Of a stretch of DNA of 64,000 nucleotides, positions 5,418-29,931 are shown piece after piece. Where the stretch lies: contig OY970393.1 of the NCBI GenBank assembly GCA_963720465.1, positions 160,001 through 224,000 of the forward strand, in the 5' to 3' direction. The notes under the pieces were generated by a model, which saw only the letters and a list, made by a program, of their open reading frames with translations, was not told where the DNA came from and searched no databases. Every line of letters starts with the position of its first letter. The first letter of the stretch is position 1. The position numbers and the translations under genes were made by a program. Source of the DNA: Methanobacteriota archaeon (GTDB lineage: Archaea; Halobacteriota; Bog-38; Methanoflorentales; Methanoflorentaceae).

Positions 5418-5427
5418 AGGGACGACG

Positions 5428-6579: not shown

Positions 6580-7044
6580 TCGAAAAGGCTCCTGTCTCGG
6601 AGCGCTCATCTATTCTTTGATGGCTGTTCGGCGCCGTTCGGCAGTCGGTGCCTGCTGAGAGGCTAAAAAATCCCTATTAGCTGCGATACTAAGAATATGG
6701 AGACAGTTTTTCGCAAACACTGTTGCCATGAAATCTAGCATCTTATGCTGCCACTCCACTATATCAGTACGGGACCATAAATCACAAAAGCGATAAAAGC
6801 ATCTCGAACGCGGTTCCCGGCCAAGGTGTGCACCGCTGGTTTCCTTTTTTTGTTCCGTAACCCCTTGAACTTATTATCTTTTTCGATTTAGAGTGCTTAG
6901 TGGACTTGAATCTCTAAACGACGCAAACCACGATGGACTGACGGCCGCAAAACACCTCTCACGCGGCCGATACGTTTAAGCTGCATTGAAACTGTCTTAC
7001 GTATTTGTTTTAGTTGTCGGGAAGATGAGAAAACGGGTATAGGG

Positions 7045-7281
7045 TTGACCGTAGCAGGTTTGGCACTAACGTTGGTATATTTCGTAGTCGTCGGTTTTAT
7101 CGCCCTGATCTGCCTGATTATTTTTTGGCCGTTAGGGATAATTGTAGGTGTATGCTGGCTAGCGGCGAATTTCGTCAGTCTGATGGTCGCCTTCACCTAC
7201 TGTCTGTGTAGATTTCGAGCACAGAAATCGCAAGTTTCTCTGCATCGTGTGCGCACATCACTTGCTGCAACACTTCAATAA
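7045..7281 (+). CDS. Small hydrophobic hypothetical protein
   Basis: Two to three hydrophobic stretches; no family recognised. Confidence 0.3.
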   Translation: MTVAGLALTLVYFVVVGFIALICLIIFWPLGIIVGVCWLAANFVSLMVAFTYCLCRFRAQKSQVSLHRVRTSLAATLQ

Positions 7282-7892
7282 TCTGGCGCAGGGTTGGCTC
7301 TCCATCACTTTGCGCGTCTGGGCGCCTACGCGGCTGAGTTAGAACGACATCATAAATGTGCGAGGGTCTGGGCAAGCTGTTCTTTTAGCTCGAGCGCAAA
7401 CGTTCGTAAATACGACCCTTCAAGCCGTTCGGCTCTGCCTAGACAGTAGCTGCATGCTGCGCCGTGAATGACCACGTACCGTAGTTTAGCGTCTAGCCTA
7501 GCCCGTTCAACGCTTTCTAGTAGTTCTTCCAGCGGTATTGTGTGAATGTAGGCAGCAAAGAGATTGTAGATAGCCTGTTTCTTGTCGGCTGTATAGGTCG
7601 GGGGATGGATTGCTTGCACACAGATGAATTTGCTCGATCCGTTATAATGCAGCTGCAAGAACGTGCCGAAAGTGAAAGGAAAAAAGAGGCGCTTCTCTGC
7701 GCGGCAGCAGCTCAAAACTCTACTTGAACTGCTAATTTAGAAACCGGCAAATCCCATCGAAACATAAAATATGACCAAGACGGGGGCTTCTGCAACTTGT
7801 GCCGCATGTCTTTCTTGTTTTGCTGAAAGTCGTAGAGTTTGTTGTGGTGCACGATCAAAATGAACATTTATCTCGTGACGTAATGCGAGACT

Positions 7893-9365
7893 TTAGAGTC
7901 TTGAAAAAGGTGTTTCTGGAGAAGGAAACACACCCGATGCCAGGGCGTAAAGCAAGAGTTTATTCTTTTCCCTGAAACGCTTTGTTATCTCGTCTCGACC
8001 AAAACCAAGTTCCGACAACAAGCATACCTCCAAAATCAAATCGAGGCGCCTCACAACAATTGAGAGTTCGAGGCCGCGTGTGACTTTGTGTTTTGGTCTT
8101 TTGGGATCATAGTGCGTGTAATAGTTCCGACCATCCACCACTTTCTTGCTAAACGAAACGGGAGGCTCAAAGCATATAGCCCAAGCAATGTCATCGAAGT
8201 AGTTCATAATTTCCAAAATTCTTCGTAAGAGTGTCATATCTCTTCGCCTCTTATTCCATTGCTTATCATATGGCTGGGCGGAGATTTTGTTAACGACGCT
8301 CAGCAGCTGAGTACTTGCCGCACCGCTGAGCTTATATTTGTTAGCAAAGCGCATGTGGTAAGTTTCTAAGCCTTGAACTAGGCTCAAAAATGAGTGAATG
8401 TTATAGACGCACGGGTTGTGTCTGATGCCGAAATACAAATCAAGAACTGGCTCTAGTAGATCAGCTTTCTCAAACCAATTGCTAAGGGTTTCCTCAAAGT
8501 GGTCACTAATGTCGGGCAGAGTGAAAAGCATCGTGTGGGGCCAAATGTCAGGGACATTACTGGCGAAATGGGGAAGCTGATAGAAAATCTCAATCTTGTT
8601 GAAGGGATCTGTTGCTGACTGCGCTTCAATCGTTATCGGAAAAACCTGTTCGCGAACGGCGAGACTCAGAAAATTGCGTAAGCTGTACAAGACCTCTTCG
8701 TGTGTCGTTAAAAGCACAGGGTCAGGCGTCTCGATGATAACCCGATAAAATTGGGTGATACAGGCTTTTTTGTTTGCCTCGCGATTATTTGGGCGTAGCA
8801 GGAAGGGCCTGATGGACATTTGAAAGCTTTTCGCTGCTTTGAACTGGCGAATTTTAGCATCGAATGTTTTCGGAGATTTGAATCTCACAACACAGTCGTA
8901 ACCATCATCACCACCATACGCGTCAGAAAGATCAATACCGGAGATCGACGCCCATTCATCAAGATGTGTGTAGCTAATCTCTAGCCTGCTGAACTTGATG
9001 TCAGCTTTTGGATAAATGTGGTCGCCGTAGAGTATTGTCTTAGTATGGAAAACAAGTTCTACCGTCATTTCATCGCTTGTAATCTCTTGTGGCCACCCAT
9101 GGCAAAAGCTATCAACCAAGGTTATATACCCGTAGGGAGACTTTCCCAAAATAATCTCTTGTTGGCGTTTGTTCGAGATAACGTGGTTAAATAGCTTTTT
9201 GATATGCTTCTTAAGGCCCGTTACTTGTAAGAAACCGCCGCTTGACGGGGCATATTTTAGCGTACCGCAAAAATCGTCATCCGAGCATCCCGGAAAAGAC
9301 CATGTGCCTTGTACAGCGAATTCCTTAATCATGGTGATGTTGTCACTGCATTTGCGCTTTGTCAA
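7893..9365 (-). CDS. ApeA-like HEPN-domain protein (putative antiviral RNase)
   Basis: ApeA-type N-terminus (GTW..P...GTLKY..GGFL), FLSLVQGLETYH, and C-terminal HEPN RxxxxH motif (RNYYTH). Confidence 0.8.
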   Translation of the reverse strand: MTKRKCSDNITMIKEFAVQGTWSFPGCSDDDFCGTLKYAPSSGGFLQVTGLKKHIKKLFNHVISNKRQQEIILGKSPYGYITLVDSFCHGWPQEITSDEMTVELVFHTKTILYGDHIYPKADIKFSRLEISYTHLDEWASISGIDLSDAYGGDDGYDCVVRFKSPKTFDAKIRQFKAAKSFQMSIRPFLLRPNNREANKKACITQFYRVIIETPDPVLLTTHEEVLYSLRNFLSLAVREQVFPITIEAQSATDPFNKIEIFYQLPHFASNVPDIWPHTMLFTLPDISDHFEETLSNWFEKADLLEPVLDLYFGIRHNPCVYNIHSFLSLVQGLETYHMRFANKYKLSGAASTQLLSVVNKISAQPYDKQWNKRRRDMTLLRRILEIMNYFDDIAWAICFEPPVSFSKKVVDGRNYYTHYDPKRPKHKVTRGLELSIVVRRLDLILEVCLLSELGFGRDEITKRFREKNKLLLYALASGVFPSPETPFSRL

Positions 9366-9518
9366 TGGTGCTGTTAACCAACTCTATCAACTTTTCGAAA
9401 TGATCATACTTGTTAGGGCAGGCAGAGCGCGAAAAAGTAGTGATGTGGCCTAAAAAATGACTAGTTATCGAAGAGTGCATTACCACAATATCATATCAGA
9501 CATCCGTTCGTGCTTTTT

Positions 9519-10261
9519 CTAACGCAATCTAACTACTCTTTTGTGAAAACTAGCAGGGTCAGTATTGTAACGGAACTCAGGCCTCGTCAGTCTTTCTGCC
9601 GCTAACTTAACAGCTTCGCAAGATTTGTCTAATGATAAGCGTGCATTACGATCTCTGCATCCACCCAAATAGAAAAACGCTTTATCTCCCTCGACCATTA
9701 ATACCAGACAATGCCATATCGAGACCTCGCCTCGTACAAGCGCTTTGAAACGCACCTTACCACAAAATGGCCTGAGTTTCAGGGAAAAATCACATTGTCG
9801 TGCAGGGTTTGAAACACTTCGAGCGCGACTGGGACTACGACATCTGCGCGACGCGTTGGCCGTTGGATGACCTGCATATCTACTAGAAGAATCGGGTTTG
9901 TCAGCGCTTCGACTTCATAGTTTATTGCTTGTGCTTGGTCCTCTTCCGCCGAAACTAGTTTGTTCGTCGCATTGAGCTGATTGTCCTGTGCCGACAGCAT
10001 TTTCTTTTGTTCGACGACTAGTTCGTTTGTTGCCGTAACGTAATTGTTAGTAACGAGAACCAAAACGGCAGTTGCGAACACTAATGCAAAAGCGGGAATT
10101 ACGGAAACAAAGGCAGGTAGAACAAAACCCACAATTACAGTTACGATACCAACAATCACAATTACGACAGCGACATACGCTATCGTAGTGGCCAGCGACC
10201 TAGAACTTATATGGCCATTGTTAGAATCTGGTTTCTCGCTTCGAAACGTGTTTTTCTCCAT
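9519..10261 (-). pseudogene. Membrane-anchored hypothetical protein, apparently frameshifted near 9785
   Basis: ORF 9779-10261 has two TM segments followed by a coiled segment. An alternative frame (LKLRPFCGKVRFKAL...) opens at the T5/C3 run and continues to 9519. Confidence 0.45.
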
Positions 10262-10760
10262 TGTCTTTACCTAGTAGCTGGGAGTCGGTGCGAACGGCCC
10301 CCGCTTTAATCTTATTTTGTTGACCATTCTTCTACTAATTCAATGGCCTCTTTTGCCAATATCAAGCACACCGTCGTCGTGAAATTTTGGCATCTATTTA
10401 TTCTCCAATTTATTTGTCGAACCGCTGTCCTCGGCGATCCGTGAGCGTGATAAATCCGGCAGCACAGCAGCTGAGTTTGTAGCTGCTATTCTTACTATCG
10501 TAAACTTCTTTTTGTGGGGAGGCATTTATGGCAGTATTCTCACGAAGATTATAGATTGAAATATGATTAGCCGCGCCTTCCCTCGGCCGAGACGTTCGTG
10601 CTGTAATTTCTAATATCGCACAATTTAGCGCGTGAACAACAAATCAAAACCGCCAGCTTTATAATTGGGACAGTATCTTTATACGGCGAAGCTTAAACGC
10701 GCGATTTTTTTTAAGAAAATGCGAACTAGGCTTATTCATCTTACTAAAAAAGGCGATGAC

Positions 10761-11939
10761 ATGGCAAATGCTCCACTTCAAAATAAGTTGATTGCGACGG
10801 CAAAATTAGTGAGCGAAGCTCCGCCAACCGTGAAGCCCAACACAGATTTTGAAATTTCTGGCAAGTTGTACGACGAAGACGTGAATAATAAGGAGGTCTC
10901 TCTCAAACGCTCGTGTGATGGCGTCTTGTTTAAACGTATTAAGGGCGTTCAAAATGCGCGCACCAACGCTAAGGGCGAATACGCTTTTAGCGTACGCCAA
11001 AATGAAGCAGGGACGCATCTTTACAAAGCGACAATCGACGACGTTGACTCTGCATCCTATACGACCAACACCGTCGGCGTGACGACACTCGTGAGTTGGC
11101 CGCGACGGGACATAGGAGCCATAATTTGTTGTTTAGCCGTCCTCGGAGGCCTTCCAATACTATTGGCACTATTAGGCGTTGCAGGCATACACGTCACAAG
11201 TCTTTTAGAGATGTACATTATTTGGCTCATCGTCTTTGCAGCCACAACGACCCTCCTCATCGCAGCGGGACACGGCACTAAGGGTCGACTGTCTGGACTA
11301 CTCATTGACGAGCGTAACCGCATGAGCGCCTCCCGCCTACAGATCATCATGTGGACGCTCGTGATTTTGCCTGCGATTTTGGCGTTAATCTGCATCAACG
11401 TCGGATACGGCTCACCATCTGGTTCTGCATTAAGTATTGCGGTACCTGTTGAGCTTTGGGCATTGCTCGGAATTAGTGGTGGCGCAGCAGTAGCTGCTCC
11501 TGTCGCAAACGATGCGACAAATCGAAGCAAAGATTTAGCAGAGGGAGCGGCTGCTCGAGCGGGTACCTCTGTTGATGCACTAGATCACGAGGGTGTGCTT
11601 GACGTGAACCTACTCGTTAAGGATGCCAAATTTGCCGACATGTTCAAAGGTGATGAAGTTGGCAATCGAGATAACATCGACATATCAAAAGTGCAAATGC
11701 TCATACTTTCGTTCGGTCTCGCCGCCGGTTACGGATCTGCTATCGTACTTTTTATACTGCAGGCGATGCAAGCAAACCCTGTACACATACCGCTGCTAAA
11801 CGGCTTGCCTGCTGTCGATTCAAGCCTTGCGTCCCTCCTATTAATTAGCCAAGGAACGTACGTCGGATACAAAGCTGCGGCCCACACACAAGGCGCTGAT
11901 GAAACCGCAAAAAATAGTGATGGAAAGTCAAAGAGCTAG
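10761..11939 (+). CDS. Multi-pass membrane protein with N-terminal Ig-like beta domain
   Basis: Beta-rich N-terminus (ISGKL..V.L....TNAKGEYAF), several TM helices, and internally repeated SASRLQIIMWT / DISKVQMLILS motifs. ATG 10761 is the likely start. Confidence 0.65.
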   Translation: MANAPLQNKLIATAKLVSEAPPTVKPNTDFEISGKLYDEDVNNKEVSLKRSCDGVLFKRIKGVQNARTNAKGEYAFSVRQNEAGTHLYKATIDDVDSASYTTNTVGVTTLVSWPRRDIGAIICCLAVLGGLPILLALLGVAGIHVTSLLEMYIIWLIVFAATTTLLIAAGHGTKGRLSGLLIDERNRMSASRLQIIMWTLVILPAILALICINVGYGSPSGSALSIAVPVELWALLGISGGAAVAAPVANDATNRSKDLAEGAAARAGTSVDALDHEGVLDVNLLVKDAKFADMFKGDEVGNRDNIDISKVQMLILSFGLAAGYGSAIVLFILQAMQANPVHIPLLNGLPAVDSSLASLLLISQGTYVGYKAAAHTQGADETAKNSDGKSKS

Positions 11940-12532
11940 CAGCGCCTGACCTACATGGCACTTCGTTCCATAAGCAGAATTAATCAACCTGTGACGCCTG
12001 TAAAGCATTATGAGAAACGATAAAGACAGCCATAGCTCTTCGAATCGACTTCATTCCATAACAAGTTTGTTCTAATTTTTTTAAACAACACTAGATCCCA
12101 AATGATAGGTGCCGACGACTGAATACGCACTCGCAGCCGCGCATGATCCCACAATAATTCGGGGGCTTGAGACTAACTCGAATCAAAGATCTATCAAACC
12201 GACGATGTAGGGGGTTCAGATCTCATGAGACTACGATCGTCAATCAAGCGTAAACAAAAAGGCAAGGGTTGAAACAATCGACACGGTAGCGCCTTATTCC
12301 CGGCGAATAGCCCGTCTCGTAGCTTTTCGCTGGTCCAGCAGTTCACGCCCGAGGGCCGTTATTATGTTCGGATAGGCATAAAACCCTTTATCCGCTGCAG
12401 CGATGTTTAGATGCTATGATCAGCTAAGCGCTGAAGAAAAGTGATTGCTGTGCTTATCAGCTCGATTTGTGGCCGCGAACCTTCAAGGCTCGGCGAAAGT
12501 TGAGCTTGTTTAAGCTCTCAATTGAGAAGTTT

Positions 12533-13412
12533 ATGTGGGTGACAGCCGCAAATCGGAACGGTTGCAGCAGGGGTCGTCAACTTCACGTATGTCCAACCGC
12601 AAAAAGACAGACAAGATCGTAACGCGCGGATAGAAGAAGAGCGGCAGCGTATTGAAGAAAGTAAGCGCGAGCTGCACAGGGCGCTTTACAGCGAAATCAT
12701 ATCTCTGTACTGCCTTCTTAACCAGTATCTATTTGTCCTTAAAAAAATGAAGAATGATGAGGAGCTGCCTGCCAGCTTTTTTAGGCAGCTTACGTTTGAT
12801 TTGTACAATACAGTGCGACTAGGCAATCCTATGTTGTATTATCAATTAGATGATGCCCATCCTATTGATTCGTTCTATACAGCGATGAAAGGGGTTAAGA
12901 TCGAGCCAGGCGATCCTTCGATAACCGTGGGCGAACTGGTCGGCGCTTTCCAATCAACGTTGACTAGTCTTCACTCAGGTATGTGGAGTGGAGCGATTAA
13001 AATTAACAAAGATCTGTTGCTAGATTTATCACGAGACTCTCTGCATTGATCGTGCATTGATGAGTTGCTGAAGTTGTTGTGTAACCCGGAAGCAGTTTCG
13101 AAGGAGCTTCTAGAGCTGCCTGCGTTGCAACCCGTAATGGCTGACTATCAACTTCAATGGACAAAATGGGTAGAGAGCGGGTCGCTCAACATTGAGCTAA
13201 TAAAAAAATGGTTCGAAGAGCGTGGCTACCCATATGACAGAAGTGCTGGCATAAAATCGCTCGTCGCCGGGACAATCGAGATCGCAAAAAGGCAAGGCCG
13301 TAGCTTCAACGAGGATGCAGTTGCAAAAGAATTAGAGGAATATGTAGATGCACAAGGAGGTGTCATTAGTTTCGACGACGCTGACAAGATTATTGAAAAG
13401 GCGTGCGAGTAG
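12533..13412 (+). pseudogene. Disrupted membrane-anchored protein, paralog of 20385-21029
   Basis: MWVTAA, then an extra A at about 12551, then IGTVAAGVV...RALYSEII...AHPIDSFY; in-frame TGA at 13047-13049 with the frame continuing to 13412. Confidence 0.6.
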
Positions 13413-13610
13413 TCGAAATCGCTTGGCACATTTGAAGTTATACGAATCGAAATCGTTGCGGCTACCTTATTTTCGGGCTACTCAAATTATGTGGTTGTGC
13501 ACTGAAGATGACTTTCTTTATTCGAGATTTTGAGCGCTCCGAAACTGTCACAATATGGAAAGGCGTTGCAGCAACTAAACATCTGTGAGTAACCAGCGCG
13601 TTTTTAGTAT

Positions 13611-14042
13611 ATACAACCAATCTGCACGCACACAATAAGCGTTCAGAGTTCAAAGCCCTCTCACGCGTATCCGATTATTCGACTGCCACGTGAGTACCGA
13701 GAATTGGCAGGATCACAAGCAGAAGTTTATAGAACTACACATCAAGGGAAGCTTGCGTTTCTCGTGACGGTAGACAAAAAAGTAGACAACAGTTGTCGTC
13801 TACTTGGCCCAGAGATTGACATTGAATCTCGCATCTATGCCTTGGAATCAGAGATCAGCTCGCTCAAATTACTCCTTCTTTCAAAGGAAGGCGGCAGCCT
13901 TCACAAAAGAAAAAGTCAAGTCACAACGAAGAATGGCCAATCGCACAGTTTTTGGATTGAAGATGACAATGGGAATTGGGTGCTCTTAAACGCACATAAG
14001 ATAGTTTTCAAGCTCAGAAGTTATCACACAAAAACAAGATGA
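13611..14042 (+). pseudogene. Small ORF family copy 1 (AbrB-like / putative integrase N-terminal fragment), start codon apparently degenerate (ATA)
   Basis: IQPICTHTISVQSSKPSHAYPIIRLPREYRELAGSQAEVYRTTHQGKLAFLVTV, homologous to 17769-18107 and 22707-23012. Confidence 0.55.
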
Positions 14043-14259
14043 TATTCTGGCTAAGAATACTCTCTTGCGAGGCTTGAAGGGAACATCGCTGCAGTGATTG
14101 TTAACAAAAGTTAAAATAATTGACTTTGTGGAAGTTTCTTCCGGACGAAGGCGAAAGTTCTGACCTTGCGGCCCCACGATGCAGCAAAGTCGGCTTCCAA
14201 CCACTCATTTAAAAGTGGCACCATTTCGATTCTGCTATAGTAAAGAGACTTAAATTAAG

Positions 14260-14673
14260 TTAAGCGAGGCGTGTGCCGCTCATCCAGTCATATACCTCAG
14301 GGTCTAACTTAGGCGGCTCTGGATCTCTGCGACGGTAAGTCCACGGGTCCTCTGGTTTGTGATAAGGGACTATCCTGGTTACATATCGCGCCACGACTTC
14401 GACTTCGTGATCTTTGTTGTTGCTATCTCGAAATTTGAACCAACATATGGATCGGTAATACTTACTTATACCGTTCTTATCTGTCTCGATTTTGTTTCTC
14501 TCGCGAGTTTCGATTTCTTTAAGGTCTCGACCCTCTTCCTTTAATCTTTCCGACTCTTTCTTAGCATCGATTAGTTTCCACGTGGAATATTCTTGTGATC
14601 TACGCGTTGCTATGAGCTTTTCAAGCACGATCTTGCTGAGTTCGTTTATGTCGAGAGGTGGCACCTCTTGCAT
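14260..14673 (-). CDS. Hypothetical protein
   Basis: 137-aa ORF with ATG preceded by GGGGTGA; charged helical region; no family recognised. Confidence 0.45.
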   Translation of the reverse strand: MQEVPPLDINELSKIVLEKLIATRRSQEYSTWKLIDAKKESERLKEEGRDLKEIETRERNKIETDKNGISKYYRSICWFKFRDSNNKDHEVEVVARYVTRIVPYHKPEDPWTYRRRDPEPPKLDPEVYDWMSGTRLA

Positions 14674-14782
14674 TCCATCACCCCATTGAGTTTATTTCTT
14701 GATTTTGCATACTTGCTAGAATCTGCAGTTATGTAGTTATCTCCCAGAATGTAGCGCACTTATAAATAAAAACACCAGGCTC

Positions 14783-15005
14783 CTAATCACGCGCCGCATC
14801 GATTGCAAAAGCCTTCAATAAAGGTCCTGTGCGTGTTACTGCGGTGGGTTGACCATCGAGTTCGGTCTGAAATTCTTGCTTGTTAATTCTCTTCGGGCAA
14901 TGTTTAAACTTGCTGTCGCTTTTATCCCATTCGTTACTTTTGAACCAACCCACAACATAAATGCCGCCATCATACTTGTTATTCTTAAAATATCGATCAA
15001 ACAGC
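14783..15005 (-). pseudogene. C-terminal remnant of a large NTPase-associated nuclease-like protein
   Basis: LFDRYF..GGIYVVGWF..WD...LKAFAID resembles the C-terminus of large NACHT/ATPase-REase-type proteins; the 5' part is missing. Confidence 0.4.
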
Positions 15006-15150
15006 TTGTCAAAGCTTGCTGGATTGCCCACGAGAATTTACCAGATACTTCACGACGGAGCGCTTGCTTTCCTAGTGATCCTCGCACCTGCATATGGAGC
15101 GTCAAAAAACAACGCAGAGCGCTCCAAGTTGCCTGCCATGACATAGCGAC
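15005..15150 (+). mobile_element. Small ORF family copy 2 (5'-truncated) ending in degenerate tRNA-Val(GAC)-like att sequence
   Basis: LSKLAGLPTRIYQILHDGALAFLVI, followed by CCTGCCATGACATAGCG, similar to the anticodon arm GCCTTGACATGGCG. Confidence 0.55.
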
Positions 15151-15426
15151 GAATTTGAGAAGTAACAACGACTTGTGATCGCCTACATCAGGCAAAGGCT
15201 AAGTTAGGTTTCTAGATTGCCTCCTTCGCTTCAAACATCTGTACAGGCCGTCGTTGCAAAATCCGAATTTTAGCCGATGAAGGAAAAATCGGCATTAACC
15301 GTTGATACCACCAAAAATAGTGGTCGTAATAGAGAGTGAGTCAGCTCAAGATTGGAGTTGACGCAGAACACGACAGTTGGGATAAATGTTTATTTAAGCA
15401 GACCGTGCTAAAAAAGAGGGATCGGT

Positions 15427-17523
15427 ATGATATCTCAAGAAGCTCAAGCTAGCGTTGGGAACTGGCAGGAAGAAGTAAAAAAGCGTAGATTTGAATTGGG
15501 TTTAGAAGAACAAGATACAATAAAAATTAACCGTATTTGCGAAGAAGTGACGAAGATATGGAAAAAAACCCCCCCTCCTTACCCCTACACGCCTCACGAT
15601 CATACGCATTGTGAACGAGTTGAAGAGAAGATCTACCAACTTCTAACGACTTCAGAACTACAGAAATTCAGCAAGATAGAGCGGTTTTTACTCATTGCTA
15701 GTGCTTGGCTTCACGATATTGGAATGAATCCTTACGCGTTGCGTAAAGACCCCCCTTGGCGTCGAGGAATGGCACGCACAAAGAGTTGGAATGAAGAAAC
15801 TCGAAAGAAGCACAATGAAAGATCCTCAACATTCGTTGAAGAAAAGGCTAAAACGCTTGGTTTGACTGACAAAGATATTAAATATTTAAAAAAGCTTTGC
15901 TATTTCCATCGACATAGAACATATTCAGAACTACAGAAGTTAGATTGGGAAACTGAAGACGATAAAATCCACATCAAACTTCTAGCTGCTTTTTTGAGGT
16001 TAGCAGACGCGCTTCACATACGAGACAGATTCCTTGTTGAACAATTCCAGATTTATGACGCTCTCGGCTTAGATCCCGAAGCAAGGTTTCATTGGTTAAA
16101 AAGCAAATTCGTCCATAGCATTTTAATTGATTCTAAAACGCACAAAATAACAGTTCTTCTAAGAGTACGAAATACAAGTAAAAAATGTGAGAAGTGGATA
16201 AAACCACTAAGAGATCTTTTAGAATTAGAAGCTCAAGATGAATTGGACTCTCTTAAGGACATATTTGCCGAAGGAGCGGAGCTTGGGTTACCAGTCTATC
16301 TGTCTGTTAAGAGTGGCATTCAAAAAAGCAAAATGGAAGAAGAAGAATGGTCAACACTCGACGAGACGTTAAATTACCTTGAATTATTTGAGAGTGTTCT
16401 GAGTCCCAATGCAAGCGCAGTTATTACGAACATATTCAAACAAATTGACCTCTACCTGAATTTGAATGATCCGACTACTGTTGTAGATTATTTAACAGAT
16501 TATGAAAAAGACGTTTTACGCCCCATCTTAGACAAACGTCCTTGTCACGTTTATTTAGCGAAGATAGATCGTTTGTTAATCGATGTTCTTAAAGATGAGG
16601 CTGATGCTACCGAGAAAGTAGAGAGAATCAAAAGTACGGTCCAGAAATGGGAAAATGACAGAGAGAGTGCTTTGGAAACAATCCCAAAAATAGCGTATGG
16701 GACTCTTGCACAGGGCTTTCCAGCACTCCTCTACGGATATAGCGATACAATAGTTAGGTGTTTAGCATATATCCTAAAAGAGCAAAAACAGAGTTTTAAA
16801 GTGTATGTTTGTGAAGGAAGGACGAACACAGAGTACCGCTATAACAATAGGATCGTGTTTTGCGACGGGATCATGTATGCAGAAAAGCTTAAGGAAGCTG
16901 AAAAGACGGTAAACAAAGCTCTTAAACGCAAAAAGGACAACACGCTCAAAATCAATATTCAGTTCGTACCTGATTCCGCTGTTTCAAACCTATTGACGAA
17001 TAAAAAGATATCAATGATACTTTTTGGAGCGAATGGGATTAGTCCAAAGGGCAAAGTTTCGCATAAGCTTGGTCACTTAGCCATCGCAGATATGGCTGCA
17101 GGCGGAAAATACGCTACGCCCATATACGTAATTGCTGAATCAATGAAAATCGGCCTGTTTGAAGAAAAGCCAGATAATCAAAGAGAGAACAATTGGCTTA
17201 CGACTGATGTGCACCAAGAAGACAAATTTGAAAAAATTTTTAACTTATCCGAAGGGCAAGGAATAAAGAACTTACTTTATAATCCACGTGAAGACGTCGT
17301 TCCGCCTGATAGAATCTTGAAAATCATCACAGAAAAAGGCCCTGAAACTCCTCAAGAGATTTGGCGACATTCAGAGGAGGAACTCGAGATGTATAAGACA
17401 TTATCGTATGATGGTGTTGTCGGGATGCTTGACGGCATTGTCGAAATGCTTAAGCAAAACGCTAACTTGTTGACAGGCGGCCAAAGGATTAAGCTACTAA
17501 CTTTTCTAAGTCATCAAATCTAA
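15427..17523 (+). CDS. HD-domain phosphohydrolase fused to an IF-2B / ribose-1,5-bisphosphate isomerase-like domain
   Basis: N-terminus: YTPHDHTH, AWLHDIGM, HNERS, LRLADALH. C-terminus: KRPCHVYL, LYGYSDTI, VYVCEGR, VPDSAV, LFGANGI, HKLGHLAIA, PIYVIAESMK, NPREDVVPP..IITEKG. Confidence 0.8.
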   Translation: MISQEAQASVGNWQEEVKKRRFELGLEEQDTIKINRICEEVTKIWKKTPPPYPYTPHDHTHCERVEEKIYQLLTTSELQKFSKIERFLLIASAWLHDIGMNPYALRKDPPWRRGMARTKSWNEETRKKHNERSSTFVEEKAKTLGLTDKDIKYLKKLCYFHRHRTYSELQKLDWETEDDKIHIKLLAAFLRLADALHIRDRFLVEQFQIYDALGLDPEARFHWLKSKFVHSILIDSKTHKITVLLRVRNTSKKCEKWIKPLRDLLELEAQDELDSLKDIFAEGAELGLPVYLSVKSGIQKSKMEEEEWSTLDETLNYLELFESVLSPNASAVITNIFKQIDLYLNLNDPTTVVDYLTDYEKDVLRPILDKRPCHVYLAKIDRLLIDVLKDEADATEKVERIKSTVQKWENDRESALETIPKIAYGTLAQGFPALLYGYSDTIVRCLAYILKEQKQSFKVYVCEGRTNTEYRYNNRIVFCDGIMYAEKLKEAEKTVNKALKRKKDNTLKINIQFVPDSAVSNLLTNKKISMILFGANGISPKGKVSHKLGHLAIADMAAGGKYATPIYVIAESMKIGLFEEKPDNQRENNWLTTDVHQEDKFEKIFNLSEGQGIKNLLYNPREDVVPPDRILKIITEKGPETPQEIWRHSEEELEMYKTLSYDGVVGMLDGIVEMLKQNANLLTGGQRIKLLTFLSHQI

Positions 17524-17768
17524 GCGCAAGTCGTTGCAAATTCTTCAAAGTCACAGCGGCCTTGTAGATTGGGGTACGCTTTGTTAAGAAAGCGGAGGCC
17601 TAATTAACCCTGGTTTTTATAAGCCGCGAGTCTCGAACAGATCATCGACTTCCAGAACGACGTATAACGGAAAAAATGGGTTCAACATAACTCTTTTTTT
17701 GGCATTTGCCTTATCTCACGCGACTAATAACAACGATTAAGTATGCAGAATAGTCCTTATTCAGCACT

Positions 17769-18107
17769 ATGCTAGCCGCTGAACAATATCCAGGTCTCTT
17801 TTTAGACGGAATGCTGCCCAAGCGTGAGTTGTTACAGATTCACCACAGCAAAATCTCTCTGCACTACGCAAAAGAAGGCTATAGCTATCCTACGATACGG
17901 CTGCCGCATACGTTCTCAATGCTTGCTTGGCTTCCAATAAAGATCTATCAGACCATTCATGAAGGGTCTCTTGCTTTTCTCGTAGTCGTTTCGTCCAAAG
18001 AAAAAGCCGCAAGCAGTCTGAAATCCTCCGTCTTCACACGTCGACAATTATTTGTTATTAAGCTACCGAGGGCTACTAACGAGCATATCAGGAAAGAGTC
18101 TAAGTAA
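17769..18107 (+). mobile_element. Small ORF family copy 3 (putative int(N)) with att-like core at 18024-18040
   Basis: ELLQIHHSKISLH..GYSYPTIRLPHTFS..IYQT.HEG.LAFLVVV...SSVFTR; TCCTCCGTCTTCACACG matches the tRNA-Val(CAC) anticodon arm. Confidence 0.65.
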
Positions 18108-18215
18108 CCACAATTGAGGGTGATCGTCGCCTATGTCAGGCAACCACCTTTTGACGTCTATTTGTATCACAAACAAGCGGAAGTTCTAAGTGTCACGATC
18201 CTACTTCATAGATGC

Positions 18216-20090
18216 ATGAGCGGAGATATTCAAGCTAACCCTTTCACACATTTCATTGTAGGGATAAACTACATGCCACGCAGGAGCGCATGTGAAATGT
18301 GGACGGATTGGTCGGAGAGCTCTATCGAGAAAGACTTTGAACAAATGAAGGAGCTCGGCCTCAACACCGTGAGAACGTTTATTTTTTGGAATGATTTCCA
18401 GCCGCAGCCAGATTCGATCTCTCTTCCTGCCATCAAAAAGTTCGATAAAATGCTGCAAATTGCGGAGAAGCATAACCTCAAACTGATGCCGACGTTCTTC
18501 ACTGGCCACATGAGCGGCGAGCATTATGATGTTCCGTGGCGCGGCAGCAGAGACATATGGGAGGATCCGTTTATGTTGAGCGCGCAGGTGGCACTGGTGC
18601 GATATTTTGCCGAGCGATATGCGGATAATGACGCGATACTGTGTTGGGACCTAGCCAATGAACACGACACATTCGCCCAGCCGCGAAGTGCCTATTCGGG
18701 ATGGCTTTGGACACACCTTCTCTACAGAGAGATGAAGACCTTTGATTGTTCACATCCAATAACCGTAGGGACGCATATTTCGTCACTCTTAAATGATAAG
18801 CTTCGGTTCGACATGATCGCGGCTGATTTTTTGTGTACGCATCCCTACCCAATCTATACGCCCTTTATCATAGATCCATCAGATACGATACGAAGCACAC
18901 TTTTTCCTGCATTTTCCTCCAAGCTCGCACAATGCCTCGGCAAGAGGAGGGTAATGCTACAGGAGTTTGGTACAAGCACCGAAATGACCTCTGATGATAT
19001 GAGCGCCAGGTTTTATCAATCAGTACTTTACAGTAGCCTCATAAACGAGTCAATTGGCGCGCTCGCATGGTGTTGGGCTGACTACACTGTACCTCCGGAG
19101 CGAAAGCCCTATAATACGACTCCTCACGAGTTTGAGTTTGGGATTACGGATTATGACGGCGTGCCTAAGAAACACGCCTGGGTTCTTAAGGAGTTTGCCG
19201 AAAATGCTAACTCGATCGACTACGCGGCATTAGCTCCTGAAAAACCAAAAGCAGCCATTGTGATCCCCCAATTTTACTATGAAGAGCACAGCGTCTTTTT
19301 GCCTGCATATTCTGCTGAAGCACAACTACGTTCACTATTTAGTGCTTTTGTTCTCGCCAAGCAAGCAAATATCGACGTTGACTTCATTAAGCCCGATGAC
19401 CCATTCACTTACGACCTGCTCATTATTCCGTCAGTTCCCAGTAAGGGGCATCTCACCGCTCTGCAGTGGAAAAAAGTTGAGCAGTATGTCTTAGATGGAG
19501 GTAACGTGTACTGCTCCTACAATGGCGTTGCGTTCCCAGGACTTAGTGATCTATTCGGCATCAAGGTGATTTCTCAGCTCTCTGCACCAGACACTCAGAC
19601 GTTTCATCTGCATCAACCCACTGTTACGCTGAATTATCGTACCGTGCCGAGCAAGGTAATGCTTGCCGATGAACACGAAGGAGAGGTGATCGCTCGAGAT
19701 CAGGACAACAATCCCGCAATCGTGCGAAATATGCATGGAAAAGGAACGACTTTATTTGTCACATCTCCTATTGAATACTATCTCTCGTTTATGTTGAATG
19801 CGGCTGAAATAAATGACTCATATCAACTGTACAAAATCGCCGGCCAAAACATTCAACGTTCCATTGACTACGACAATCCGTTCGTCGAGTCCAAGCTGTT
19901 TTGTGGAAAGCGGGAGAAATACATTCTCTTTGTTAGCCACCGGAATACGCCTACGACATGTAGCTTCAACATTAACGTTACGCACGGCCGTTCCGAGCAA
20001 GTTAGCCCGCGCTCAGATGAGATCGGATCAGAAAAGCCGAATGTGGTGACTATTGAGCCAAACGGTTACGCAATATTGCGTATTGAATGA
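18216..20090 (+). CDS. Clan GH-A glycoside hydrolase (GH5/GH42-like; putative beta-mannosidase or beta-galactosidase)
   Basis: GINY, LGLNTVRTFIFW..FQP, WDLANEH acid/base, LQEFG nucleophile, C-terminal GH42 trimerisation-like domain. ATG 18216 is the likely start. Confidence 0.8.
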   Translation: MSGDIQANPFTHFIVGINYMPRRSACEMWTDWSESSIEKDFEQMKELGLNTVRTFIFWNDFQPQPDSISLPAIKKFDKMLQIAEKHNLKLMPTFFTGHMSGEHYDVPWRGSRDIWEDPFMLSAQVALVRYFAERYADNDAILCWDLANEHDTFAQPRSAYSGWLWTHLLYREMKTFDCSHPITVGTHISSLLNDKLRFDMIAADFLCTHPYPIYTPFIIDPSDTIRSTLFPAFSSKLAQCLGKRRVMLQEFGTSTEMTSDDMSARFYQSVLYSSLINESIGALAWCWADYTVPPERKPYNTTPHEFEFGITDYDGVPKKHAWVLKEFAENANSIDYAALAPEKPKAAIVIPQFYYEEHSVFLPAYSAEAQLRSLFSAFVLAKQANIDVDFIKPDDPFTYDLLIIPSVPSKGHLTALQWKKVEQYVLDGGNVYCSYNGVAFPGLSDLFGIKVISQLSAPDTQTFHLHQPTVTLNYRTVPSKVMLADEHEGEVIARDQDNNPAIVRNMHGKGTTLFVTSPIEYYLSFMLNAAEINDSYQLYKIAGQNIQRSIDYDNPFVESKLFCGKREKYILFVSHRNTPTTCSFNINVTHGRSEQVSPRSDEIGSEKPNVVTIEPNGYAILRIE

Positions 20091-20384
20091 GGTCGATGGC
20101 TTTACGAATCTCACAAGAAGATTTTTTGCAGATTTTAGTAAGCATTGACTCACGGGGTTTAAAAAAGATAAAACAACTAATAGCTGAGCTTTGATGATTT
20201 AACCTAAGCGGTTATTTGTGCAACGCGAGTTATCATTCTGAATTGTGCTGATCGGCGCGGAGCCTACAGTACGTTTGCAGCTTGCCAATCGATTTTCTTG
20301 ATAACCAGAGATTCACGAAAACGTTTATAACCTCGGCGAACGTTTGGGTATGCACTTTCATTCTAACGCTATGCTGGTTCAACT

Positions 20385-21029
20385 ATGGTTGAACTCGGAA
20401 TTGATACTACAGTGCTCCTCGCGCTCTTTGCGCTTATCGGAACGGTTGTAGTAGCATTTATCAATGGTATGTTCACCATCGTACGCGTGTGGTTGGACCC
20501 GCGCCGGCAAAGGCAGGAAGAGCTTAGACAACAGCAAGGGCTGGTTAAAGCGCTCTATAATGAAGTCATACATATGTGCAAGTTTTTGCTCGATAAGCCG
20601 GAGACGATCGCCGCGGCTCCTAATAGCTATTTTAATCTCGATGTTTATTATGCGACACGCAAGGACCCTATTAAGTTTTTCATGCTACCTACAGCGCACG
20701 AGCTTGACAGCTTCTACATGGAATTCCTTGACCTGAAAAATGAGTTAAAGACGATACTGAAAAAAAAAGGCACAGGCAGCCCCAAAGAGGCAATAACCAA
20801 AGCACTCGAGCGCATTGCAACTGATATTGTATGCAGTACAGCGTGTTTAAACCAGGTAGCGACAACGATCACGGGTGTTCCCAGTGCACGAGAGCAGTTG
20901 CTGGACCTCCTTAACAACGCACAAGATGAAGCGTGCCACAAACACCTGATTCCCGAGAAACAGAACCTCCGCCAACTATTTGGACTCGAACCCCCCACTG
21001 CAGGCCTAGAGAGGTACACTCCGTGCTAG
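20385..21029 (+). CDS. Membrane-anchored hypothetical protein
   Basis: N-terminal TM segment, KALYNEVI and LDVY...DP..FF.L..AHELDSFY motifs shared with the 12.5-13.4 kb pseudogene. Confidence 0.7.
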   Translation: MVELGIDTTVLLALFALIGTVVVAFINGMFTIVRVWLDPRRQRQEELRQQQGLVKALYNEVIHMCKFLLDKPETIAAAPNSYFNLDVYYATRKDPIKFFMLPTAHELDSFYMEFLDLKNELKTILKKKGTGSPKEAITKALERIATDIVCSTACLNQVATTITGVPSAREQLLDLLNNAQDEACHKHLIPEKQNLRQLFGLEPPTAGLERYTPC

Positions 21030-21958
21030 CTGCAGTCATCACTTTTTTTGCAAAAAAGATTCGTTATGTTACGCTTTTCAGCCGTATAGGTGGTGAGCAA
21101 CTCATCTTTTGACATCGGCGTCACCGTGTTAGTTTCTTCATTGATTTCCAAGAAGGTTGTAAAGCCATAAGATGTGAGCAGCTCTAAGAACGTCTCGGCG
21201 CTGGTGCCAAACTCTTTTAAGCCAAGGGGCCAGAACTCTGTAATAAGTCTGATCTCTCTATTAACCTTCAATAAATTCTCCATTCCTCTTATCGCCCCAT
21301 ATTCTGCTCCCTCAATATCGATCTTGATCAGATGTACCGGCGGAAACGTTGGATTGAAATACTGGTCTAAGGTGGTTACGTCGACAAAGATGCACTCTCT
21401 GTGTTCTTCGGTGCGATAAATTCGATGCGTCGATGTTTCGTTTGGGGCTAGGTAGAGCTGGGTACTACCGTTCGCATTCGAGACCGCTTTATTAGCGAGA
21501 ACGACGTTGGTGAGATTGTTGTGTTCGACGTTTTTCTTAAGCAACGTTAAGTTCTTTGGCTCAGGCTCAAAGGCGTATACCTTTCCGGTCTCGCCGACAA
21601 TCTGCGCAGCAAGTATCGTATAATAACCGATATTCGCTCCAATGTCTATGACTGTGTTCCCTGGTTGTATGTGTTCGGTAAACATGTGTGTCGCGAGCGG
21701 TTCCACCACTCCGAATAACGACATTTCAAGGTGATAAGACTCGTTCGATGCGAGAAACAAGGTATTGCCCGCCACCTTAGCCACTGTCGGTTTGAGATTC
21801 GAACGCAGCAGTTTGTGGGTAATTATGATTAGGTGGGTCTTGTTTATTCCGATCCTCGACAAAAGCTCTATGGTAAGCCTCAAGAACTTATGGAATATGG
21901 TCAACGCATTTAGGCCCTGCACCTTGGGCCGGTGGCGTAGAATATCAGAGTTCCACAT
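21026..21958 (-). CDS. FkbM-family SAM-dependent methyltransferase
   Basis: VIDIGANIGYYT, VYAFEPEP, LIKIDIEGAE. Confidence 0.9.
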   Translation of the reverse strand: MWNSDILRHRPKVQGLNALTIFHKFLRLTIELLSRIGINKTHLIIITHKLLRSNLKPTVAKVAGNTLFLASNESYHLEMSLFGVVEPLATHMFTEHIQPGNTVIDIGANIGYYTILAAQIVGETGKVYAFEPEPKNLTLLKKNVEHNNLTNVVLANKAVSNANGSTQLYLAPNETSTHRIYRTEEHRECIFVDVTTLDQYFNPTFPPVHLIKIDIEGAEYGAIRGMENLLKVNREIRLITEFWPLGLKEFGTSAETFLELLTSYGFTTFLEINEETNTVTPMSKDELLTTYTAEKRNITNLFCKKSDDCS

Positions 21959-22706
21959 CTCTCATCTGCAACAGGTAACTTGAAACGCGTCTTAGTGCAT
22001 TTCGTCATTTCTGCAGTCGAACTGCCTGCAGACTCGTCGCAATACAGCATTTACCCACAATATTCTGATACTCACTAACATATAGAAACTAGATACATGA
22101 CTCAAATAAAATCCAAATCTGCCTGTAGCAAATCATTCTTTTACTACTAGCGTCACAATTAAACATCGAAATGTATGTCGCCGTATGTTAAAGTTTTCGG
22201 CAAATAGTCTGCACTAGTTCGCGTATCCTTTCCGCTGCGCTGCAGATCACTTTCACGCGAGCCCAGAATTTAGAACGGCTTACGGGATGTCACGAGCTTT
22301 AATAATCTCGCTGCCGGAGTGCCATCATTGTAAAGGCCTAGGGTGGTTGGTCCAAAGCTGCATAATTCAAAATCTATACTACGTGAAGTGAATAACGCCA
22401 GTATATCGCTCCTACAAGGGCGATAGTGGCTTAAAATTCCTGTTCAGAGAGGTTAAAAGGAACCTCTCGCGGCGCTACTTTGTTGGCCTCTACGAAATTA
22501 TGCGGGGGGCAGCTACTACTTCTGTCTAAAATCGCAGAAGAATAACCCAGCGTCCTATGATCTTCTTTTTAACGACAACAGCCAGTTTAGAGCATTACGG
22601 AACAAAGCACGTTTAAGGGCCTTTCTTAGCTTATCTGCTGATCTGCAGTTAGCCGCGTGCGGCCAATCACAATGACTAAGTGTCTTCCGCTGACCCATCT
22701 ACCATT

Positions 22707-23012
22707 ATGCTAGCCCCCGAACATTGGTCAGAGCTTTTTTCAAACGGTGCGTATCCAAAAAATGAGCTGCTACAGATCCATCATAGCAAAATCTCGCTTC
22801 ACCGCGCAAAAACTGGTTACGACTACCCAACAATTCGGCTCCCACACACATTCTCGCGACTCACAGGTTTGTCCACCTGAATCTATCAGACCGCTCACGA
22901 GGGAGCGTTGGCTTTTCGCGTGGTCATTTCACGAACAGAAAAAGCCTCAGAAAGTCGCGAATCCTCCGTCTTCATACGGCGAAGGTCGGGCGTTCGAATC
23001 GCCATCCCCTGA
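22707..23012 (+). mobile_element. Small ORF family copy 4 (putative int(N), nonsense codon at 22878) running through a tRNA 3'-half-like att sequence (22967-23003)
   Basis: Close homolog of 17769-18107. After the in-frame TGA it continues IYQTAHEGALAF...SSVFIRRRSGVRIA; CGTCTTCATACGGCGAAGGTCGGGCGTTCGAATCGCC contains an anticodon arm and T-arm. Confidence 0.7.
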
Positions 23013-23040
23013 AGCGTCTTTGATGGCTCGGTTCGGTTTC

Positions 23041-29604: not shown

Positions 29605-29931
29605 ATGCCCTATGCAGACCCCGACCGGCGTCGTGAATACGACAAGGAATACAAGCAGATGGTGCGGGTCCAGGGACGGACAAAAAAAGGCATGGAAACC
29701 CGTCTAACCGCCCTTGAAATTAAAGAGGCTGAAGACCTGCGCGGCCTCGTCAACGAAGTTGTCGATGAGGCACGAAACGCCGATAGCTCTTCTTTACCGC
29801 TTGAGGCCAAGTTGCGAATCAAGTTACGGGCCGTGGAGATCGGCCTTCGGGTCATTGAGATCACGAATCACGAGCGACGGATAGCTGCGCTCGAGGACAA
29901 ATCCCATGGAGAGACACGAACCTCGAATTAG
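29605..29931 (+). CDS. Small helical protein, putative terminase small subunit
   Basis: Overlaps the terL start; C-terminal ERRIAALE coiled-coil motif. Assignment is positional. Confidence 0.5.
   Translation: MPYADPDRRREYDKEYKQMVRVQGRTKKGMETRLTALEIKEAEDLRGLVNEVVDEARNADSSSLPLEAKLRIKLRAVEIGLRVIEITNHERRIAALEDKSHGETRTSN

Follow-up and report, generated by a model that had tools for sequence, protein, structure and literature searches.

An HD-CE domain fused to an inactivated IF-2B-fold isomerase module: a candidate ligand-gated, cassette-borne conflict protein of archaea and bacteria

Introduction

HD deoxynucleoside triphosphatases (dNTPases) and the HD domain of Cas3 are HD-domain outputs of defence systems; the small-molecule sensor domains of prokaryotic immunity are, to our knowledge, of few kinds (CARF, SAVED, SLOG, TIR-linked and similar domains). 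The gene considered here lies in a stretch of 64,000 nucleotides (nt) from a Methanoflorentaceae archaeon (GenBank assembly GCA_963720465.1, contig OY970393.1, positions 160,001 to 224,000), referred to as the window, and encodes an HD-CE domain followed by an IF-2B-fold module that has lost the catalytic residues of ribose-1,5-bisphosphate (R15P) isomerase. The protein fits the known modular sensor-effector logic of conflict systems, but its sensor fold is not known to have served there before. The explanation preferred here, which may well be right and may equally be wrong, is that this one gene encodes a conflict system whose HD effector is gated by a ligand, and that it sits on a small mobile cassette; such a system would probably be antiviral.

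The closest described output is that of the UG24 reverse transcriptase, whose C-terminal domain is a phosphohydrolase and for which a role in defence is predicted, according to the accessible part of its description (PMC9226505). The window protein shares with UG24 an HD-superfamily metal site and a weak match to the UG24 C-terminal region; unlike UG24, Cas3 and the HD dNTPases, it lacks a reverse transcriptase, a helicase and a regulatory site of dNTPase type. The closest described modules are those of Pepco (= Trypco1/2). In conflict systems, trypsin-like peptidases are described with Trypco1/2 as their partners (PMC7159879). Pepco proteins are pore-forming toxins whose activation falls to a trypsin-like protease encoded next to them, and diverse sensors are fused to this protease (bioRxiv 10.1101/2025.11.14.688446); in the accessible parts of these two reports, neither HD-CE nor IF-2B is named among the sensors described.

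On the sensor side, the window protein resembles R15P isomerase (e2b2; PDB 5yfj, 3a11) in its entire two-subdomain fold, in the retained Arg65, Ser137 and Lys240 and in a predicted dimer through the C-terminal subdomain; unlike the enzyme, it lacks the catalytic Cys and Asp, is fused to an HD domain and comes from a genome without a RuBisCO match. The alpha, beta and delta regulatory subunits of eIF2B are likewise non-catalytic IF-2B folds, and the titles of structure entries 7kmf and 7kma (sugar-phosphate activation, ligand-bound alpha) point to a precedent for a dead isomerase fold serving as metabolite sensor and assembly unit. Unlike eIF2B, the window protein is prokaryotic, accessory, mobile and fused to a phosphohydrolase, has pocket residues of its own and stands in no translation-factor context.

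A first-pass annotation, made from the sequence alone, had been aware of no described system with this architecture. In the literature searched no description of an HD-CE–IF-2B architecture was found; the supplementary sensor lists of the Pepco/Trypco papers, which were outside the search, may include it. The architecture is catalogued without function in Pfam-annotated collections and in the ESM Atlas and, as far as searched, is neither described nor tested.

Architecture of the gene and its product

A single unbroken open reading frame (ORF) with an ATG start accounts exactly for the gene, the coordinates of which are given with those of its parts in Table 1. Two Pfam families cover the product: HD-CE (PF24391) on residues 54-264, with 102.6 bits against a gathering cut-off of 27 (E 3.9e-29), and IF-2B (PF01008) on the C-terminal part, with 67.6 bits against 22.4 (E 1.4e-18). 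The full-protein AlphaFold2 (AF2) model, built on 47 relatives, has a predicted local distance difference test score (pLDDT) of 88.4 and a predicted template-modelling score of 0.84. Residue conservation was counted in an alignment of 47 sequences chosen as full-length two-domain matches (A1), and a second residue check used an independent set of 39 locus representatives. The C-terminal tail of the window protein is unmatched in the relatives shown in A1, which stop near residue 650.

The IF-2B module is an isomerase fold without its catalytic residues

The A1 profile aligns with the R15P isomerase of Pyrococcus horikoshii over residues 7-308 of 324 (E 1.5e-23); since this is nearly the entire enzyme, the IF-2B module is complete, with a helical N-terminal and a Rossmann-like C-terminal subdomain. 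Foldseek matches the AF2 model best to solved structures of eIF2B alpha and of R15P isomerases (E 1e-12 to 4e-13; template-modelling score by target 0.6-0.7 over ~350 columns), with eIF2B alpha at the top (E 3.6e-13). The gathering cut-off and the two-subdomain fold both place the module in IF-2B. The NCBIfam models for R15P isomerase (TIGR00511) and MtnA match far below threshold, TIGR00511 with 41.3 bits against a cut-off of 314.1. Judged by the profile alignment, the module, which makes up the C-terminal two thirds of the protein, derives from the R15P isomerase branch.

In the accessible text of PMC5789824, the catalytic residues of R15P isomerase are Cys135 and Asp204 in P. horikoshii (Cys133 and Asp202 in T. 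kodakarensis); the 1-phosphate is contacted by Arg22, Arg65, Gln166 and Lys215, the last also touching the sugar, the 5-phosphate by Ser137 and Lys240, and the sugar by Asn214, while Trp231 belongs to the site for the activator adenosine monophosphate (AMP). The residues found opposite these positions are listed in Table 1. Both catalytic residues are absent from the window protein and family-wide. Gly437, opposite the cysteine, is present in 45 of 47 A1 sequences and in all 39 locus representatives, none of which has Cys; position 536, opposite the aspartate, is Asn in 46 of 47 A1 sequences and, among the representatives, Asn in 35, His in two, Arg in one, Thr in one and Asp in none. The PDB sequence that the family profile fits best is the D204N mutant of R15P isomerase. 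With the catalytic Cys now Gly and the catalytic Asp now Asn, isomerisation by the known mechanism is impossible.

The phosphate-binding set of the enzyme is kept in part (Arg65, Ser137, Lys240) and altered in part (Arg22, Lys215 and the Gln166 region). S439 and K574 are invariant in A1 (47/47 each), and R371 is found in 42, H374 in 43, H546 in 45 and H550 in 46 of the 47 sequences. In the alignment, the new near-invariant histidines (His374, His546 and His550) appear to take positions at which the enzyme touches its sugar and the 1-phosphate. Given a conserved 5-phosphate site and a 1-phosphate site remodelled with histidines, it may be speculated that the ligand resembles ribose 5-phosphate at one end and carries a group other than phosphate on C1; nucleotides and their derivatives are examples.

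R15P isomerase assembles as a hexamer. Two copies of residues 300-655 of the window protein are predicted to form a homodimer with a score of 0.78, against 0.00 for the best of three controls; IF-2B-family dimers have already been solved, and the score may reflect memory of the model. The mark set for this score is reached by 20 of 30 proteins solved as same-chain pairs and by 1 of 23 solved single chains. Contact agreement in the dimer runs was at least 98% and partner pLDDT at least 83. The predicted interface falls inside residues 460-626; S439, N536, H546, H550, K574, R371 and H374 all lie outside it, which argues that these pocket residues are conserved for a ligand. The model supports homodimerisation through the Rossmann-like subdomain, as in the family.

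These results agree with the first-pass annotation, which had proposed an intact gene for a two-domain HD plus IF-2B protein that has lost both isomerase catalytic residues and kept part of the phosphate pocket: the ORF, the Pfam matches, the AF2 and Foldseek comparisons, the profile alignment and the conservation counts all bear this out, the fold of the C-terminus, named there as a point to be checked, is confirmed as IF-2B by Pfam, profile and AF2/Foldseek, and every motif that it named (HD site, YGYS, GAN and KRPCHV) had been read correctly.

The HD-CE domain

Residues H57, H61, H96-D97, H129, H161 and D194 are all present in the window protein and are each kept in 42-46 of the 47 A1 sequences; H96-D97 is found in all 37 locus representatives that cover the region. 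Both the gathering cut-off and these His/Asp metal ligands place the domain in HD-CE, so that the complete metal site of HD-CE type noticed at first reading has held up. Modelled alone, the domain has a pLDDT of 91.5 and is close to no solved structure. The C-terminal domains of GppA/PPX are nearest (VIA-align GppA Z 13.7, root-mean-square deviation 3.8, 183 residues aligned; Foldseek E 2e-4), with a Z near the level that mostly helical models can attain through a common arrangement alone. Class-I cyclic-nucleotide phosphodiesterases follow at Z 10-11, HD-GYP domains and small alarmone hydrolases lie within Z 9-11, and SAMHD1-type structures are farther away (Z 8.2); Foldseek matches of the domain range from E 2e-4 to 1e-2. 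The sole match in PADLOC-DB 2.0 is RT_UG24, a weak one (E 1.1e-5) that joins residues 122-236 to profile positions 797-910 of 1036. Structural matches of the model settle the HD superfamily and give no substrate.

The folds nearest to the HD domain (GppA/PPX, class-I phosphodiesterases, HD-GYP domains and small alarmone hydrolases, at VIA Z 9-13.7) would suit a regulator in place of a killer: acting as a phosphodiesterase or alarmone hydrolase, the HD domain would clear a signalling nucleotide (cyclic, (p)ppGpp-like or immune) when the IF-2B module reports a metabolite, and the protein would either tune a response encoded elsewhere or act as counter-defence for a mobile element. A single gene without partner, on a mobile cassette, would suit such a regulator as well. 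However, the structural matches stop at the level of the HD superfamily and give no substrate, and the Pepco-linked trypsin and STAND nucleoside triphosphatase (NTPase) fusions described below put the core on the host's sensing side. At the sensitivities of the respective searches, moreover, IMG/VR viral contigs (pattern scan), INPHARED phages and PLSDB plasmids, where counter-defence genes would be expected, yielded no relative. A regulator of this kind is considered rather unlikely.

Distribution of the family and its links to conflict systems

A protein collection clustered at 90% gave 78 matches, 56 of them with both PF24391 and PF01008; a library clustered at 50% gave 970 representatives at E <= 1e-3 and 128 at E <= 1e-30; and one ESM Atlas cluster, with 85 members, is automatically labelled 'HD-CE/Initiation factor 2 subunit family'. 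The named sources are archaeal (Methanothrix/Methanosaeta, Methanophagales and Ca. Argoarchaeum) and bacterial (Zixibacteria, Dehalococcoidia, Planctomycetota, Acidobacteria, Thermodesulfobacteriota, Flavobacteriales and proteobacterial metagenome-assembled genomes (MAGs)); identity is highest, at 41-50%, with proteins of Methanothrix, a Zixibacteria MAG and unclassified bacteria. With a protein query, full-length relatives were found in none of 23 genomes of the same family (17 of the genus and six of a sister genus, several of them incomplete); in the phylum they were found in 3 of 401 sampled genomes at E <= 1e-20, the own genome counted. An initial search of 60 relatives gave one further full-length copy (L002, G038:C1:295742-297553), which has one in-frame TGA and may be decaying. 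A eukaryotic, mostly Ascomycota, cluster of 111 members among the ESM Atlas structural neighbours joins IF-2B to a NUDIX hydrolase, an independent pairing with a phosphohydrolase.

Several relatives carry a further domain, either Trypsin_2 (sometimes with TPR) or Metallophos at the N-terminus, or nSTAND6 at the C-terminus; remoter HD-CE proteins bear other C-terminal parts. In one locus (L015), where the relative is 33% identical to the window protein, the gene of a 105-residue Trypco1 protein (E 8.2e-16) stops a single base short of the gene for a Trypsin_2-HD-CE-IF-2B protein. As in Pepco/Trypco1-protease-sensor modules, Trypco1 is upstream, Trypsin_2 comes first, and HD-CE-IF-2B stands at the place of the sensor. 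This layout is the strongest single argument for membership of the family in immunity and for sensing by the IF-2B module; it concerns the relative, not the window protein, which unlike the Pepco/Trypco modules and the L015 relative has neither a peptidase domain nor a Trypco neighbour. The affinity to conflict systems that had been proposed for the gene is supported by the L015 Trypco1/Pepco gene and by the Trypsin_2, Metallophos and nSTAND6 fusions.

Neighbourhoods of relatives and the slot beside FBPase_3

Loci with a full-length copy, 53 in number, were gathered from 12 close sequences and form 39 groups at 80% protein identity. FBPase_3, a fructose-bisphosphate (FBP) aldolase/phosphatase, recurs beside the gene in 6 of the 39 groups, in three of them with a form-III-like RuBisCO on the opposite side. 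Such contexts would fit a metabolic or salvage enzyme, that is, an HD nucleotidase or a sugar-bisphosphate or nucleotide phosphohydrolase under IF-2B-like allosteric control, with a tie to pentose-bisphosphate, RuBisCO or gluconeogenic metabolism. Methanothrix-type loci place the gene between RuBisCO and FBPase_3, the latter is the only recurrent neighbour, and housekeeping genes are common among the rest; R15P isomerase is the nearest match of the IF-2B part, and the eukaryotic IF-2B–NUDIX fusion offers another phosphohydrolase in the same company.

The metabolic explanation is opposed by the loss of both isomerase catalytic residues, by the occurrence of the family in just three of the 401 phylum genomes and by the genome of the window itself. 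That genome, a single 2.31 Mb contig that is 91% complete by marker genes, has no match to RuBisCO_large (PF00016), carries its FBPase_3 at 495 kb from the gene and has one canonical IF-2B gene elsewhere. The Methanothrix-type loci themselves also speak against it. Between L010 and L015 the flanking RuBisCO (97.9%) and FBPase_3 (97.8%) are conserved, whereas the HD-IF-2B genes lie in opposite orientation and their products share 31% identity, one of them having Trypsin_2; over the four loci of this type, flanks are 87-98% and HD-IF-2B cores 25-37% identical. In a sample of 81 Methanothrix-family genomes, 78 have FBPase_3 and 22 have an HD-CE domain, yet the two are adjacent only in three, all of which had entered through loci already gathered. 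The interval between RuBisCO and FBPase_3 was also examined in ten further genomes of this family, picked from the top of the FBPase list: it is empty in three (183-253 nt) and holds a conserved pair, of a class-I FBPase and a class-II aldolase-like gene, in seven. At locus L057 the adjacency is accompanied by a duplication of the FBPase 5' end. A metabolic role is accordingly thought unlikely, and metabolic linkage through RuBisCO and FBPase_3, which had been taken seriously, was set aside as the principal explanation in view of the divergence between alleles and flanks, the empty or refilled slots, the duplication at L057 and the gene content of the own genome. The RuBisCO/FBPase_3 adjacency is best read as insertion at a preferred site by a conserved gene end, not as an operon.

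The slot between RuBisCO and FBPase_3 occurs in three states in these genomes (L136-L145, L010, L015, L024 and L085): empty, with the FBPase/aldolase-like pair, or with an HD-IF-2B allele. At L024 the slot version is partly deleted, and part of RuBisCO is also lost.

Repeat-bracketed cassettes

Direct repeats were searched within 500 nt on each side of every copy, loci with fewer than 60 nt on a side being left out; the repeats found are listed in Table 1. Matches of 11 nt at L012 and L022 (E 0.047), in which one copy or both are ~320-470 nt away from the gene, are probably due to chance. The bracketed segments measure ~1.9-2.6 kb and hold the gene alone or, at L014 and L063, the gene and one small ORF; none contains a recombinase. 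At L057, the downstream copy of the repeat consists of the ribosome-binding site and the first 11 codons of an intact FBPase_3, and the upstream copy is a stranded duplicate that reaches a stop after 26 codons; on sequence grounds, this duplication is the mark of an insertion. At L023 and L063 the repeats are part of arrays that separate neighbouring small gene sets and resemble cassette arrays. Proteins at least 80% identical are found in three different contexts in each of groups 1 and 2, and an rve integrase-core fragment adjoins the copy at L085. The varied lengths of the repeats would fit Campbell-type integration via a short shared segment, or a recombinase acting in trans.

Cassettes of this size between direct repeats of the target, with no recombinase inside and with insertions at conserved gene ends (the FBPase_3 5' end at L057, the IMPDH-like 3' end at L014), might also be taken for a selfish single-gene element, the protein of which promotes the insertion or maintenance of its own cassette through a homing-type or addiction function. 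This is very improbable: the repeats, 11 to 120 nt long and specific to each locus, are better explained by host recombination or a recombinase in trans than by one transposase; most loci show none; no recombinase or homing nuclease is known to have either fold; and the rve fragment beside the L085 copy suggests that other elements are the movers.

The island in the window

The gene of the window, for which a conflict role on a small mobile cassette is preferred here, has a G+C content of 39.3% (37.2% at third codon positions), against 51.8% in the window outside the island in which it lies (~6700-23040; Table 1). The island has a collinear match in none of five genomes of the same genus, in which only short, many-place repeats match. 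To the left, window positions 5000-6700 match all five genomes at 79-85%; to the right, positions 23043-24999 match one of the five at 94%. Hdr genes, a pyridoxal-phosphate enzyme and a thiamine-pyrophosphate enzyme lie left of the island, and a Rad50-Mre11-HerA-NurA operon lies to its right. The flanking ORFs of the gene have no Pfam match. A 14-nt direct repeat brackets the gene, the right copy lying 7 nt past the stop codon; it has no further copy in the window, and the surroundings do not extend the alignment. An exact match as long as the one in the repeat (11 nt) occurs in 3% of shuffles; a further shuffle figure is post hoc, its pattern having been taken from the data. What lends the repeat some weight is solely that homologues elsewhere lie between much longer repeats.

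Much of what the first-pass annotation had said of this setting stands: the gene is AT-rich, shares an island with ApeA and, by its G+C content, the lack of a collinear match in all five genomes and the rarity of relatives, is foreign and island-borne. The att-like scars that it described stand in part, in that the 14-nt repeat does bracket the gene, but the repeat is short and unextended, and exact matches as long arise in shuffled sequence at the rate given above.

Several other features of the island were observed. Dispersed repeats of several kinds lie at 7200-7690, 9660-9780, 13610-13900, 17700-18140 and 22650-23000, all of which match many places in the five genomes of the genus. Two of the repeats (17765-18044 and 22703-22982) are 69% identical to each other, and a search of the own genome with two repeats gave 12-14 diverged copies (67-84% identical). 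Four of the five overlap ORFs of ~110-120 residues without a Pfam match, two of which share the motif 'H.G.LAFLV'. Just downstream of the gene, and flanked by two dispersed-repeat copies, a gene at 18114-20090 (+) encodes a glycoside-hydrolase-like protein of 658 residues with weak GH42, GH5 and GH35 matches and a GH42 trimerisation domain. An FkbM-type methyltransferase gene lies at 21026-21958 (-). At 10665-11939 (+), the island encodes a predicted membrane protein of 424 residues with an Ig-like N-terminal part and several hydrophobic stretches, for which neither a family match over threshold nor a PADLOC match was obtained. At the right border of the island, Rad50 is present as two ORFs 95 nt apart, one for a C-terminal part of 262 residues (23041-23829, -) and one for an N-terminal ATPase part of 379 residues (23925-25064, -); the Rad50 of the window may be split, frameshifted or unusually short. 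A gene for a terminase large subunit (Terminase_6N, 6C; 29906-31816, +) lies 75 nt from tRNA-Val(CAC) (31891-31964, -), which suggests an integrated virus or the remnant of one.

Table 1. Features of the window, residues aligned with those of R15P isomerase, and direct repeats at loci of relatives
Feature	Position in window (nt)	Strand	Remarks
Complete HD-CE / IF-2B-fold pseudo-isomerase gene	15427..17523	+	698 aa; Pfam, AF2 model, GC 39.3%
HD-CE domain, residues 54-264	15586..16218	+	Pfam; metal ligands H57, H61, H96-D97, H129, H161, D194
Small three-strand/two-helix cap			Closes the HD-CE domain; extends to residue ~300
IF-2B helical N-terminal subdomain, residues ~305-427	16339..16707	+	Profile alignment to R15P isomerase, secondary structure of the model
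PNAS, residues 327-330			In the N-terminal IF-2B subdomain, opposite Arg22-Gly-Ala-Gly of the isomerase
IF-2B Rossmann-like C-terminal subdomain, residues ~430-648	16714..17370	+	Holds Gly437, Ser439, Asn536, His546, His550, Lys574
C-terminal helical tail, residues ~650-698	17374..17520	+	Low-confidence model, pLDDT 48-70
Possible archaeal TATA-like box TTTATTTAAG	15389..15398	+	~30 nt 5' of the ATG; inferred from sequence
GAGGGA	15416-15421	+	Upstream of the ATG; read from sequence
14-nt direct repeat, left copy	15250..15263	+	Possible insertion scar; 11 exact, one mismatch over 14; weak alone
14-nt direct repeat, right copy	17530..17543	+	
Variable island	6700..23040	.	~16 kb, GC 45%; punctuated by dispersed repeats
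ApeA	7893..9365	-	ApeA_NTD1 E 7.5e-31, HEPN_Apea E 3.8e-22; separate defence-type gene, 6 kb away in the same island
Opposite Cys135 (catalytic)			Gly437; motif YGYS 436-439 opposite THCHS
Opposite Asp204 (catalytic)			Asn536; motif GAN 534-536 opposite GAD
Opposite Arg65 (1-phosphate)			Arg371, kept; motif KRPCHV 370-375 opposite TRPTAV
Opposite Ser137 (5-phosphate)			Ser439, kept
Opposite Lys240 (5-phosphate)			Lys574, kept
Opposite Arg22 (1-phosphate)			Pro327
Opposite Asn214 (sugar contact)			His546
Opposite Lys215 (1-phosphate and sugar)			Thr in most relatives; Lys547 in the window protein
Opposite Thr218 (role unstated in the accessible text of the source)			His550
Opposite Gln166 (1-phosphate)			11-residue insert at 470-480
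Opposite Trp231 (AMP-activator site)			Pro565
Direct repeat at L063			120 nt, 99% identical
Direct repeat at L023			79 nt, 94% identical
Direct repeat at L057			37 nt, 97% identical
Direct repeat at L014			34 nt, 94% identical; 3' end of the upstream IMPDH-like gene
Direct repeat at L061			19 nt
Direct repeat at L065			12 nt

A sensor-effector model and the points that weigh against it

In the model preferred for the window protein, the IF-2B module would dimerise through its Rossmann-like subdomain, as in the family, and its pocket would take a small phosphorylated ligand, most likely one that bears ribose-5-phosphate, such as a nucleotide or a breakdown product. Binding would close the two IF-2B subdomains, as in the isomerase, and this closure, or a change of oligomer, would switch on the HD domain. 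The active domain would then hydrolyse the phosphoesters of nucleotides, of signalling nucleotides or of nucleic acids, and this would halt the infected cell or the invader. Relatives may wire the HD-IF-2B core to other outputs: a trypsin-like peptidase by a Pepco/Trypco1 toxin, a metallophosphoesterase or a STAND NTPase.

Several observations weigh against this model. HD ligands are missing in 2-5 of the 47 A1 sequences at each position though the IF-2B part is retained, and HD activity can therefore not always be the output. The solved folds nearest to the HD domain are PPX/GppA and cyclic-nucleotide phosphodiesterases, not nucleases, and no system model in PADLOC-DB 2.0 is matched by the window protein above noise. 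Convincing flanking repeats were found in four loci only. There is no conserved partner gene; besides FBPase_3, no neighbour family occurs in more than 3 of the 39 groups. By Pfam on ~40 neighbours, relatives of the gene are surrounded mostly by ordinary genes, among them those for an aminotransferase, a Na/H exchanger, an IMPDH-like protein, PrmC, a fumarase-type lyase, an acetyl-CoA hydrolase, a pyruvate formate-lyase-like protein, histidine kinases and a Ser/Thr kinase. At L067, FBPase_3 again lies downstream, is only 42-46% identical to the others and has no repeat that was found; the FBPase_3 adjacency, this locus included, could reflect a functional tie to sugar-bisphosphate metabolism.

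A PADLOC tally over 104 neighbour ORFs gave Cas3c (3 members), WYL, PD-T4-6, mad and AriA; it was uncontrolled and was set aside as evidence of enrichment, and the PD-T4-6 matches may be ordinary kinases (one Ser/Thr and two histidine kinases are among the neighbours). Enrichment in defence islands, which the first-pass annotation had anticipated, is not shown: the neighbours are mostly housekeeping genes, and the tally is at least partly unspecific. The same annotation had named housekeeping contexts of homologues as a reason to abandon the proposal. Such contexts are literally found at many loci; however, the arrangement indicates insertion and not a shared pathway, since single-gene inserts are bracketed by repeats, alleles 31% identical lie between flanks 98% identical, and the slot is empty or refilled in sister genomes.

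A wider reading takes the domain fusions and the cassettes together and is offered more tentatively, as it is somewhat doubtful: a dead R15P isomerase would be a new class of small-molecule sensor in prokaryotic immunity, cassette-borne and with interchangeable outputs. It would sense a ribose-phosphate-type metabolite or a nucleotide breakdown product; its outputs would be the fused HD hydrolase, a Pepco-releasing trypsin peptidase, a metallophosphoesterase or a STAND NTPase; and its vehicle would be a single-gene cassette whose insertion duplicates the ends of conserved genes, that of the FBP aldolase/phosphatase among them.

Significance

If the protein proves to be a metabolic enzyme, the finding is a modest one. 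The hypervariable Methanothrix slot between RuBisCO and the FBP aldolase/phosphatase, with the repeat-bracketed inserts, is a clean natural case, in archaea, of cassettes being exchanged at one fixed position. The family is tractable, with one gene, more than 100 diverse archaeal and bacterial members and clear point mutants (the HD site and the pocket His, Ser and Lys). If the sensor-effector model is true, the IF-2B pseudo-isomerase would add to immunity a sensor derived from central sugar-phosphate metabolism and would tie the sensing of infection to ribose-phosphate or nucleotide breakdown; it would also be a prokaryotic counterpart, or an evolutionary parallel, of the non-catalytic sugar-phosphate-binding subunits of eIF2B, a hub of the eukaryotic stress response.

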